Below are positions 20,153 to 24,731 of a stretch of 24,731 nucleotides of DNA, in pieces. Position 1 is the first letter of the stretch. Each line of letters starts with the position of its first letter. Origin of the DNA: an uncultured Legionellaceae bacterium (lineage in GTDB: Bacteria > Pseudomonadota > Gammaproteobacteria > Legionellales > Legionellaceae); assembly GCA_903887975.1 (NCBI GenBank), contig CAISSD010000194.1:1-24731 (forward strand), in the 5' to 3' direction. The notes below the pieces were generated by a model. The model was not told the origin of the DNA and made no database searches. It saw only the letters and a program-made list of their open reading frames with translations. A program made the translations under genes and the position numbers.

Positions 20153-22253
20153 TTAAAAATACCTTATGGATTTTGGGATTTCTTTTGAAATCAATATCAA
20201 TGGTCTCTGGTGTGATGTCTTTAACATCATAATGATTGATGATCTCATGGTCCAATTTAAACGAACGTAGATTGGTAGAAAAATACAGCACCCCCAATGG
20301 ATTTAATCGTCGCATACAGGCATCAATTAAAGCCTGGTGATCGCGTTGGATGTCGAGCACCCCTTCCATGCGTTTGGAGTTGGAAAAACTTGGTGGATCA
20401 CAAAAAATAACATCAAAACGGTCTTTAGCGCGTTTAAGCCAATCCACACAATCCTCATGAATGAATTGATGTTTATTGATGTCAATATGATTCAATTGAA
20501 AATTTTCTTGGGCCCATTGCAGATAGGTTTTTGATAAATCCACATTGGTGGTCAGTGCGCCATTGAGTGCTGCATGGACACTGGCGGTTGCCGTATAACA
20601 AAAACAATTTAAAAGTCGTGTATGGGGGGGGAGTTTTGCCAAGCGAAAACGCATCAAGCGATGATCTAAAAATAAACCCGTATCCAAATAATCATGAACG
20701 TTGATTTTAAATTGCGCGCGCCCTTCATCAACCACAAAATATTGTTGTGTGGCGTTTAGTTTTTGATATTGATCTTTTCCTTTTTGTCGCATGCGCTCTT
20801 TAAATACCACCTGACTTGGTAATAGCCCCAGAACAAGAGGCGTGGCTTTCAAGACATCCAATCGACGTTGTTCAACCAAATGAGGCGCAATGCTATTGGG
20901 TGCATGGTATTCTTGAATGACCACCACGTCATTATAAACATCGATGGCAAAAGCATATTCAGGAAGATCGGCATCGTAAAGGCGATAGCACTGGATGTTG
21001 TTTTTTCTTGCCCATTTTTTCAGGTGATCATGATTTTTTTTCAGTCGATTGGCAAACATCGGCGCAACCATCGTGGGTTCGGGATGCGGAAGAATGGCAT
21101 GTTTTAATTTGTTGGTTTCATCAAGATTAAAGCAATAAAGCTTGCACGCCATCGCACCATTATAAAATGTGTAATTTTTGTTGGAACGAAGACCAATGGC
21201 TTTGGCAAGCACGGGATTTGTCGTTAAAATTGCGGCTTGCCAGCCTTGAAATTGGTGGCTTAATGTTGTCCCCAACGCTTGGTATAAAGGCACCAGTGGT
21301 GTCACATCCCCCAAACGCTCGCCATAAGGTGGATTGCCAATTAAAAGACCAAAAGTCGCATTGGCTTTGCAATGGCTTACAGATTGATGATGAAATCGTA
21401 CACAATCTTGGACACCAGCGCGAGCGGCATTGGCTTCGGCTTTTTGAATTAATGTTGCGTCATCGTCACAGCCCTCAAGGGGTATGGTGATGGGTTTGAT
21501 GGATGCGATGGCATCTTGTTTTAATTGAGCCCATAATGCAGGTTTATGGATGAGCCAGGATTGAAAGGATTGATCATGGCGCAACAAACCAGGCGCTCTG
21601 TGGGTTGCCATCATGGCGGCTTCAATCACAAAGGTTCCTGATCCGCAAAAGGGATCAAAAAAACCCGCGTTTTGTGTGGCCAGATTTGGCCAATGGGCAC
21701 GCATTAAAATAGCAGCTGCTAAATTTTCTTTGATGGGGGCGGTACCTGCTTCTTTTCGATAACCTCGCTCATGCATGCTAAAGCCTGTCATATCCAAGCT
21801 TAGGGTTAATGAATCGTTTTTTAAATAAGCATGCACGCGAATGTCGGCATTTTCTCGGGCGATGGAGGGCCTAAGACCATGAATGGCACGAAAATGATCG
21901 ACAATGCCATCTTTAATCAATTGTGCGCCAAATAAAGTATTTCGAATGTCAGCGCTGCTTCCATGAAATTCAATATGGATCGACTGATGTTCGCTAAAGT
22001 ACGTTGACCAAGGATATTGACGACATAATTGATAGATTTGGTCTTTATTGACGCAGGATTCTTGGCATAAAATCCATTGAATCCGATTGGCAATTCTGGA
22101 CCACAAACACAATTGATAAGCTGTTTCAAGCGAAGCTAGGCCATAGACACCTTGGGGGCTAACGTGTGTGATGGAGAGTCCTAAGGCTTGGAGTTCTTGT
22201 TCTAAAAGATACTCTAATCCTTTGGGGCAACTGGCAAAGATGGGTTGATTCAT
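20136..22253 (-). CDS. rlmL: Bifunctional 23S rRNA m2G2445/m7G2069 methyltransferase RlmKL
   Basis: CPKGLE, THUMP region, HERGYR, APIKENLAAA, DPFCGSGT, NPPYGERL, DTGLFLDHR, DPPSFSNSK; 705 aa. Confidence 0.96.
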   Translation of the reverse strand: MNQPIFASCPKGLEYLLEQELQALGLSITHVSPQGVYGLASLETAYQLCLWSRIANRIQWILCQESCVNKDQIYQLCRQYPWSTYFSEHQSIHIEFHGSSADIRNTLFGAQLIKDGIVDHFRAIHGLRPSIARENADIRVHAYLKNDSLTLSLDMTGFSMHERGYRKEAGTAPIKENLAAAILMRAHWPNLATQNAGFFDPFCGSGTFVIEAAMMATHRAPGLLRHDQSFQSWLIHKPALWAQLKQDAIASIKPITIPLEGCDDDATLIQKAEANAARAGVQDCVRFHHQSVSHCKANATFGLLIGNPPYGERLGDVTPLVPLYQALGTTLSHQFQGWQAAILTTNPVLAKAIGLRSNKNYTFYNGAMACKLYCFNLDETNKLKHAILPHPEPTMVAPMFANRLKKNHDHLKKWARKNNIQCYRLYDADLPEYAFAIDVYNDVVVIQEYHAPNSIAPHLVEQRRLDVLKATPLVLGLLPSQVVFKERMRQKGKDQYQKLNATQQYFVVDEGRAQFKINVHDYLDTGLFLDHRLMRFRLAKLPPHTRLLNCFCYTATASVHAALNGALTTNVDLSKTYLQWAQENFQLNHIDINKHQFIHEDCVDWLKRAKDRFDVIFCDPPSFSNSKRMEGVLDIQRDHQALIDACMRRLNPLGVLYFSTNLRSFKLDHEIINHYDVKDITPETIDIDFKRNPKIHKVFLITGKD

Positions 22254-22756
22254 GAAATATAAGACCTTAAATAACGAAACAGTGCCCGCCCTGCACCGGT
22301 GTTTTTATTGGCGATTTGCTCATCTTTGGCTTTTTTGATGAGTTGGCGTAATTGTTGTACATCGTTGGGCGAGTATTGTGTCACAAATTCGGTGAGCGCG
22401 GTATTCCCGTCGTTGATGAGTCGGGTTCGCCACGCTTCACACTCATGAAAATCTACGGATTGGGCTTTGTCTTTGGCATTCAATTGTTCATGAATGGCCA
22501 AAATGGCATCAACATCGGCACTGCGCATGAGTTTGCCAATCAATTGCGCTTGACGACGTATGGCACCATGACTTTTAAGACTTTGGGCTTCAATAATGGT
22601 TTGTTTTAGTTTTTCAGAAAGTGGATAAGCTTCTAAACGCGTTAAACTTAATTTGCTTAATTCAACGCCCAACGCTTGTAATGCAGCCGCTTCGCGTTTT
22701 TGTTGGGATTTACTTTTAAATTCTTCCATTATCTGATTTGGGTTTTTATGGATCAT
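22250..22756 (-). CDS. yjgA: Ribosome biogenesis factor YjgA/DarP (DUF615)
   Basis: KSKSQQKREAAALQALGVEL, AIRRQAQLIGKLMR, EAWRTRLI, DVQQLRQLI, RALFRYLR. The start may be the second Met (MEEFKSK). Confidence 0.92.
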   Translation of the reverse strand: MIHKNPNQIMEEFKSKSQQKREAAALQALGVELSKLSLTRLEAYPLSEKLKQTIIEAQSLKSHGAIRRQAQLIGKLMRSADVDAILAIHEQLNAKDKAQSVDFHECEAWRTRLINDGNTALTEFVTQYSPNDVQQLRQLIKKAKDEQIANKNTGAGRALFRYLRSYIS

Positions 22757-22829
22757 GGCTGATTATTGATCGAATTTTCTTTTGTCGCCACTGATAAATG
22801 ATGTTTTTAAGACAACAACCTGCATTTTT

Positions 22830-22843
22830 AGAGATATTTCTTG
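22830..22843. promoter_or_regulatory. LetA/GacA-class response regulator box candidate
   Basis: AGAGATATTTCTTG. The core AGATATTTCT matches 9 of 10 positions of the AGAAATTTCT core of the Legionella LetA box (TNAGAAATTTCTNA, recalled) and lies just upstream of the sRNA promoter. Confidence 0.55.
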
Positions 22844-22865
22844 TGTGGTAAAGGGCAATTGCCGG

Positions 22866-22893
22866 GTGACACACATTGTGAAAAAGTTATACT
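22866..22893 (+). promoter_or_regulatory. Promoter of the GGA-repeat sRNA
   Basis: GTGACA (22866-22871), 16-bp spacer, TATACT (22888-22893). Predicted start site near 22900. Confidence 0.6.
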
Positions 22894-22899
22894 CTATGC

Positions 22900-22984
22900 C
22901 TGTAGGATGACATGGACGGTCTGACAGGATGTCAATGCAGGAAGCGACGCACGGAAATGCGCCGCACGGAAGCGGCCCTTTTTA
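22900..22984 (+). ncRNA. rsmY: CsrA/RsmA-sequestering sRNA, RsmY-like
   Basis: Six GGA motifs in 66 nt (22905, 22914, 22927, 22940, 22953, 22968). Most sit in hairpin loops: GAC-ATGGACG-GTC, TGAC-AGGAT-GTCA, CGCA-CGGAAA-TGCG, GCCGC-ACGGAA-GCGGC, followed by CCTTTTT. Convergent with gyrB. Confidence 0.8.
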
Positions 22985-22994
22985 TGAAGCAGTT

Positions 22995-24731
<1,737 letters not shown>

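Follow-up and report, generated by a model that had tools for sequence, protein, structure and literature searches.

The window, by which we mean the whole stretch of DNA analysed here (24,731 nucleotides), carries a predicted small RNA (sRNA) gene on its plus strand between yjgA and gyrB, divergent from the former and convergent with the latter. A sequence-only reading of this DNA had described a box, a promoter, a short RNA rich in GGA motifs and a terminator at this place, and had taken the RNA for a CsrA sponge of the RsmY type. Reading of positions 22500-23300, together with promoter, terminator and GGA scans, recovered every one of these features where they had been placed. The host assembly (1.36 Mb in 301 contigs, 81% complete) is the sole representative of its genus in the genome set. 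The DNA sequencing runs that contain the window sequence are lake-water and freshwater metagenomes, and one of them (X1) has the locus at 100% identity. The features of the locus are listed below.

22250-22756, minus strand: yjgA, ribosome biogenesis factor (NCBIfam NF003593, 161 bits)
22782-22910 and 22929-23342, plus strand: overlapping open reading frames (from the ORF list)
22828-22845, plus strand: upstream activating box TTAGAGATATTTCTTGTG (18 bp), its position matching that of the family-wide box TTTGAGATATTTCTTACA
22866-22893, plus strand: sigma-70-type promoter with -35 GTGACA (22866-22871), a 16-nt spacer and -10 TATACT (22888-22893), from the promoter scan
22899-22983, plus strand: predicted RsmY-type sRNA of about 85 nt, with the 5' end placed from the -10 element (+/- 3 nt) and the 3' end set in the U-run
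22909-22921, plus strand: hairpin H1, GAC-AUGGACG-GUC, with GGA in the loop, part of the conserved twin-hairpin 5' module (22909-22934)
22922-22934, plus strand: hairpin H2, UGAC-AGGAU-GUCA, with GGA in the loop, the other part of this module
22936-22946, plus strand: weak hairpin H3, UGC-AGGAA-GCG, presenting GGA4 (pair probability at most 0.05)
22949-22960, plus strand: weak hairpin H4, GCA-CGGAAA-UGC, presenting GGA5 (pair probability about 0.3)
22961-22983, plus strand: intrinsic terminator GCCGC-ACGGAA-GCGGC (22961-22976) with GGA6 in the loop, followed by CC and UUUUU (22979-22983), from the terminator scan
22995-24731, minus strand: gyrB, 3' part, running off the window (NCBIfam NF011501, 883 bits)

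The predicted RNA is intergenic, lying between the end of yjgA at 22756 and the gyrB stop codon at 22995-22997, and the ORFs that overlap it are short and non-conserved. From the predicted terminator and the positions of the flanking genes it follows that the RNA converges on gyrB and that its 3' end is 11 nt short of the gyrB stop codon. When 22961-22984 is read on the minus strand, the GC hairpin of the sRNA terminator comes 19 nt past the stop codon of gyrB and is not followed by a U-run. On that strand it may bring about partial termination of gyrB, in which case the two convergent genes may share one hairpin.

The promoter agrees with the consensus at 10 of 12 positions and was the sole promoter-like site found by the promoter scan within 22600-23100. 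Upstream of it, the near-palindromic decamer AGATATTTCT (22832-22841) noted in the sequence-only reading turned out to be the core of an 18-bp box. The family form of this box, TTTGAGATATTTCTTACA (TTTGAG-N6-CTTACA), is a variant of the UvrY/GacA box, for which the consensus is TGTAAGN6CTTACA (PMC3171408), and several related species (e.g. L018 and L059) have a perfect TGTAAG-N6-CTTACA. The upstream layout is fixed in more than 50 distinct loci, where the 18-bp box, about 20 nt, (A/G)TGACA, the spacer, TATACT, about 14 nt and the twin-hairpin core follow one another. The -35 and -10 hexamers occupy identical positions across the homologues, and the box keeps a constant distance from them in 50 or more homologous loci, the window included. 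The box is thus real and conserved in position, but in the window copy its right half-site is degenerate, reading CTTGTG where the family has CTTACA. The centre GAGATATTTCTT is kept, 14 of 18 positions agree with the family consensus, and 6 of the 12 specified positions agree with TGTAAGN6CTTACA. Since the box matches at 14 positions while its right half-site is degenerate, control of the window gene by LetA is, on sequence grounds, likely yet possibly weakened. The deviation at 22843-22845, where the window has GTG and nearly all homologues have ACA, amounts to three adjacent transitions; a similar change in the right half is seen elsewhere only in L064 (L. dresdenensis) and L009.

At about 85 nt the predicted RNA is compact, as had been claimed. 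It contains six GGA motifs, starting at 22905, 22914, 22927, 22940, 22953 and 22968 (GGA1-GGA6), and every one of them forms part of an A(N)GGA motif (AGGA three times, ACGGA twice and AUGGA once). Six GGA per 88 nt were reached in 0.97% of mononucleotide shuffles, and 88-nt windows with six GGA make up about 0.02% of those in the host genome, where they form 28 clusters, only 3 of them outside long ORFs. The conservation of the whole unit throughout the family is a stronger argument against chance than these density statistics; exactly six GGA were present in 22 of 27 homologues.

In the consensus fold of the family, hairpin loops hold five of the six GGA motifs, and GGA1 belongs to the unpaired 5' end. 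GGA2, GGA3 and GGA6 are in the loops of conserved helices, namely H1, H2 and the terminator, and GGA4 and GGA5 in those of the weak hairpins; most homologues have an equivalent hairpin AGCAC...GUGCU with a GGA loop, which was poorly aligned by MAFFT. The twin-hairpin 5' module is nearly invariant among 73 distinct homologues. For the window RNA taken singly, the minimum-free-energy fold (-24.6 kcal/mol, versus -16.0 kcal/mol for the family fold) has one long 5' stem, in which CCUGUA pairs with UGCAGG and UGACAU with AUGUCA, and GGA4 and part of GGA3 are paired. This single-sequence fold was no more stable than those of shuffled sequences (z = 0.14). A fold comparison showed H1 and H2 to dominate to varying extent in other homologues. 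The fold of the 5' domain in the free RNA is therefore ambiguous, as the long stem is favoured energetically and compensatory changes favour H1 and H2; binding of CsrA would be expected to select the hairpin form. The earlier statement that at least four GGA are in hairpin loops accordingly holds for the family consensus, but not for the minimum-free-energy fold of the window copy, which prefers the long 5' stem. The terminator hairpin is the sole terminator-like site in the scanned region and has a pair probability of 0.90-0.93 in the window RNA.

A BLAST search with 22820-22990 gave matches in 20 of the 36 other Legionellaceae genera, the best of them (L003) with 78% identity over 115 nt; none was obtained in a weak test on 24 genomes belonging to other families in the class. 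The 120 genomes drawn for a search at the level of the order all belong to Legionellaceae, and hence no other family was covered by it. Public stretches with the core pattern GACANGGAN(1-2)GTCTGACAGGATGTC number 47; their labels are nearly all Legionella, Tatlockia, Legionellaceae or Legionellales, and L. maceachernii, L. feeleii and L. dresdenensis are among them. An exact match to the 22 specified bases of the core was also seen in a contig from a Thorarchaeota metagenome-assembled genome (L033:6744-6767), inside coding-like sequence and with no box, promoter or terminator; it is probably due to chance or to a contaminating or mis-binned contig.

A covariance model (R1) was built from 27 distinct full-length homologues (alignment A1), for which RNAalifold gave three helices: H1 GAC/GUC with a 7-nt GGA loop, H2 UGAC/GUCA with the loop AGGAU, and the terminator with a GGA loop. 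On the window the model matched 22895-22984 with 72.5 bits (E 8.7e-21), a score that is partly so by construction because the window is among the 27 training sequences; the BLAST matches to other genera (E 3.8e-18 and 5e-15) give support that is independent of R1. The element was found by R1 in 130 of 149 Legionellaceae genomes (102 of the 116 high-quality ones) and, in a second draw, in 109 of 121. When 73 distinct sequences were aligned to the model, 99.5% of the helix cells were paired (99.5-100% in H1 and H2). Compensatory changes were observed at six pairs, one in H1, one in H2 and four of the five in the terminator, the single examples in H1 and H2 being a consequence of the strong conservation of these helices. 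The change in H1 (GAC/GUC to AAC/GUU) and that in H2 (UGAC/GUCA to UGGC/GCCA) both favour H1 and H2 over the long stem. Neither shuffling nor sliding of the pairing partners reached the observed values in any case (0 shuffles, 0 slides), in an alignment that is model-fitted, of mutually related sequences, and gathered in part with a pattern containing H1 and H2.

No model of Rfam 15 matched the whole window at gathering thresholds, or 22740-23010 at E up to 10, and thus RsmY (RF00195), PrrB_RsmZ (RF00166), RsmX, CsrB and CsrC do not match the window. Four Legionella loci with the homologous gene, including that of L. maceachernii, likewise gave no Rfam match, so that the RNA is invisible to Rfam-based annotation throughout the family. 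The word "hidden" used in the sequence-only reading is correct in this sense, that is, for annotation based on Rfam and similar catalogues only.

The position of the gene corresponds to that of a known sRNA. In L. pneumophila Paris, rsmY converges on gyrB and has lpp0005 as its other neighbour, and rsmZ is flanked by lpp1662 and lpp1663 (Kulkarni 2006, PMC1488887); the RsmY of L. pneumophila has been named lppnc0001 (Sahr 2022, PMC8828724). Among the best 30 matches of R1, 21 converge on gyrB from a distance of no more than about 1.5 kb beyond its 3' end. In complete genomes contig 1 has the match about 6-9 kb from its start, in agreement with the published position of rsmY. The statement in the sequence-only reading that L. 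pneumophila rsmY converges on gyrB is borne out by the published position and by these matches alike. In G141, a complete genome of 3.4 Mb, the copy next to gyrB is preceded by the box TTGAGAAATTTCTTACA and the promoter ATGACA/TATACT; it contains the twin-hairpin core, and its terminator loop carries GGA. A second locus, matched more weakly, in another Legionella genome (L111) resembles it in box and promoter, with a different RNA that is devoid of the core, and fits RsmZ. Since the core belongs to the gyrB-linked copy of G141 and is missing from the RsmZ-like locus of L111, the window copy shares both the position and the core of RsmY. Under the five criteria of Kulkarni et al. (2006), the locus was found to be intergenic, to contain GGA motifs, to end in a Rho-independent terminator, to have GGA in loops or unpaired, and to be preceded by a UvrY/GacA/LetA-type site.

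The protein partners were searched for in the host genome with profiles. CsrA is canonical (64 aa; NF002469, 118.7 bits). An equivalog of UvrY/SirA/GacA (221 aa; 287 bits, cut-off 280) is encoded immediately upstream of uvrC, uvrY-uvrC being a classical gene arrangement; the letA/uvrY-class gene overlaps uvrC by 8 nt (L105:3-2109, G000:C286). Of LetS only the C-terminal 375 aa are encoded, at the edge of a contig; they match positions 541-905 of the 906 in profile NF045901 with 489 bits. The genes on which the sequence-only reading had made its case depend were thus found, letS as a fragment, and csrA, whose absence was to have counted against it, is there. LetA of L. pneumophila binds the rsmX, rsmY and rsmZ promoters (PMC5928044), and its RsmX/Y/Z RNAs sequester CsrA (PMC5928044, PMC5338858). 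By the mechanism proposed for the window gene, LetS would phosphorylate the UvrY/GacA-class response regulator LetA, which would bind the upstream box and activate the sigma-70-type promoter. The transcript, about 85 nt long, would expose its six A(N)GGA motifs for the most part in short hairpin loops, the terminator loop among them, and would titrate CsrA dimers off their mRNA targets, whereby CsrA-mediated repression would be relieved. Pairing of the RNA to the csrA leader was also considered and rejected, as the longest match was 6 nt and 412 of 500 shuffles did as well.

The sequence anatomy, the homology, the synteny with gyrB, three helices that are conserved and covary, and the finding of csrA, letA and letS in the host genome all bear on the same assignment, that an uncultured freshwater member of the Legionellaceae has its rsmY orthologue at 22828-22983 (plus strand), with a proposed LetA/S-activated, CsrA-titrating mechanism. 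We put the probability of this reading at roughly 0.9. The RsmY homology claimed by the sequence-only reading is upheld by the R1 score and by the gyrB-convergent position. We infer transcription, dependence on LetA, binding of CsrA and, further downstream, the physiology of a life-cycle switch like that of L. pneumophila. Searches of sequencing runs found the sequence in DNA metagenomes and in no RNA run; three metatranscriptomes gave zero contigs, but they come from a sample with just a relative's sequence, its DNA run (X8) sharing only 7% of the sampled words with the query, so that this does not speak for absence of the transcript.

Three other explanations were weighed against this assignment. 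A weak terminator could be read through, giving an antisense RNA on the 3' end of gyrB besides or instead of CsrA titration, possibly by way of the conformational switch that had been suggested earlier. The terminator stem has only 5 bp and is separated by CC from the U-run, the 3' end of the RNA is 11 nt away from the stop codon of gyrB, and in at least 13 related species the 5' module has no terminator of its own and is followed 4-20 nt later by that stop codon. The helix required for a switch, GCGACGCA/UGCGCCGC, is however less stable, by about 2 kcal/mol, than H4 and the terminator together (-9.4 vs -11.4 kcal/mol), and was rejected with a pair probability of 0.07-0.10 against the 0.90-0.93 of the terminator. 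No competing helix is conserved among the 27 full-length homologues, and the terminator has a probability of at least 0.78 in all 27, so that the switch was given up. Readthrough is, in our view, an unlikely account of the gene.

It is very unlikely that the gene, though a CsrA sponge, is a paralogue of the RsmZ/RsmX type or a copy that moved next to gyrB. Its gyrB-convergent position is the family-wide position of rsmY, gyrB-linked copies resemble it most in the promoter and the 5' module (L003, as above), and the RsmZ-like second matches in Legionella have no twin-hairpin core and score about 33-36 bits. Several genera do have the same core away from gyrB, and only one copy, that in the window, was found in the host genome (81% complete). 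The 3' half of the window gene shows 64% identity to three copies that are not linked to gyrB (L005, L010 and L023), against 59% (L003) and 50-53% (L006-L008) to copies that are linked to gyrB in the nearest relatives; these differences are small, and come from a poorly aligned region. Hardly any weight can be given to the idea that there is no RNA gene at all, but a conserved DNA element (a protein site or a bidirectional terminator region of gyrB) or a spurious small ORF. Promoter, RNA and terminator are kept in this order in more than 100 genomes, including at loci away from gyrB, compensatory changes preserve the RNA helices, the GGA count is conserved, and the orthologous locus of L. pneumophila is an experimentally studied sRNA. 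The plus-strand ORFs 22782-22910 and 22929-23342 do overlap the gene, but they are not frame-conserved and have indels among the homologues; the hairpin on the minus strand, for its part, could aid gyrB termination.

As an rsmY orthologue, the window gene agrees with RsmY of L. pneumophila, a member of the same family of organisms, in its gyrB-convergent downstream position, in having a LetA-type box, a sigma-70 promoter, a short RNA, A(N)GGA hairpin loops and GGA in the terminator loop, and it has the twin-hairpin core in common with the gyrB-linked copy of complete Legionella genomes. Unlike in L. pneumophila, where the other neighbour is lpp0005 on the same strand, the window has yjgA in divergent orientation, the right half-site of its box is degenerate, and its host belongs to an uncultured lake-water lineage. 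A second sponge (RsmZ or RsmX), again unlike in L. pneumophila, was not detected in the 81%-complete assembly, where rsmZ was looked for with a regular expression, with R1 at E up to 1 and by GGA density, and only weak matches inside long ORFs were returned; the search by GGA density also gave two GGA-rich stretches outside long ORFs, both reading like coding sequence. Legionella RsmZ (between lpp1662 and lpp1663 in Paris) belongs to the same cascade and, judging by L111, has a similar box and promoter, but it has no GACANGGANNGUCUGACAGGAUGUC core, lies elsewhere in the genome and is matched weakly by R1 (about 33-36 bits). By analogy, the window RNA would also be counted with Pseudomonas RsmY, RsmZ and RsmX (RF00195, RF00166, RF02144) and enterobacterial CsrB and CsrC as a GacA/UvrY-activated RNA that sequesters CsrA/RsmA by means of GGA loops. 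It has, in contrast to them, no detectable homology in sequence or structure (Rfam, E up to 10), it is much shorter than CsrB, and the Legionellaceae box TTTGAG-N6-CTTACA varies from TGTAAGN6CTTACA.

The relatives display several architectural variants of the gene. In at least 13 related species the box, the promoter and the twin-hairpin module are intact, the gyrB stop codon follows within 4-20 nt, and there is neither a 3' half nor a terminator. These gyrB-abutting short forms are at the following loci.

L018:1491-1552
L020:1491-1547
L027, L029, L032, L043, L050, L052, L057, L058, L059, L063, L068 and L070

All best matches in the genera g25 and g18 are short, with about 50-80 nt. Because a short form has no terminator of its own, its transcript must overlap the 3' end of gyrB as antisense or end in an unconventional way. 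At the other extreme, L107:170-600 (G014:C88:73870-74300) has a single box and promoter, about five tandem 5' modules with a period of about 50 nt, and the usual 3' half and terminator. The predicted RNA is about 360 nt long with about 20 GGA, and has the appearance of a CsrB-like expansion of the Legionellaceae RNA. A degenerate version of this tandem-module gene is found in L108, from a genome related to that of L107, and two tandem sRNA genes or modules adjoin gyrB in L109:180-400 (G027:C47) and L025:1521-1614. Two near-identical copies of the sRNA gene occur in one genome (L005 and L023; G034:C2 and G034:C18), the near-identity extending over more than 60 nt of flanking sequence on each side, and represent either a recent duplication or separately assembled strain variants.

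A tentative and rather doubtful generalisation of these variants is that the AGGGAU-GACANGGANNGUC-UGACAGGAUGUCA module, near-invariant as it is, is a dedicated CsrA-clamp unit of the Legionellaceae that has been mobile in evolution, and that lineages tune the capacity of the sponge by the number of modules. The window gene, with 85 nt and a weakened LetA box, would then represent the single-module form, and may be the only sponge that a reduced genome has. If true, Rsm RNAs would have evolved by modules in a way not described so far, and antisense overlap would couple the gyrB-abutting forms to gyrB.

For specialists the existence of an rsmY gene in this organism is to be expected, and RNAs of this kind are well known, but the standard catalogues miss it: as Rfam 15 has no model that detects the RNA, it is unannotated in every Legionellaceae genome. 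The alignments and the model (A1/A2 and R1) define a candidate RNA family absent from Rfam, and are of value for annotation in this respect. What is added here is the family-wide definition of the RNA, the architectural variants in the relatives, and the parts of the cascade in a lineage with a small genome. The gyrB-linked RsmY gene is nearly universal in Legionellaceae (130 of the 149 genomes searched). The LetA/S-Rsm-CsrA switch is best known from the life cycle of L. pneumophila, and its parts, the sponge RNA, CsrA, LetA and at least part of LetS, are present in an uncultured freshwater relative with a small assembly.
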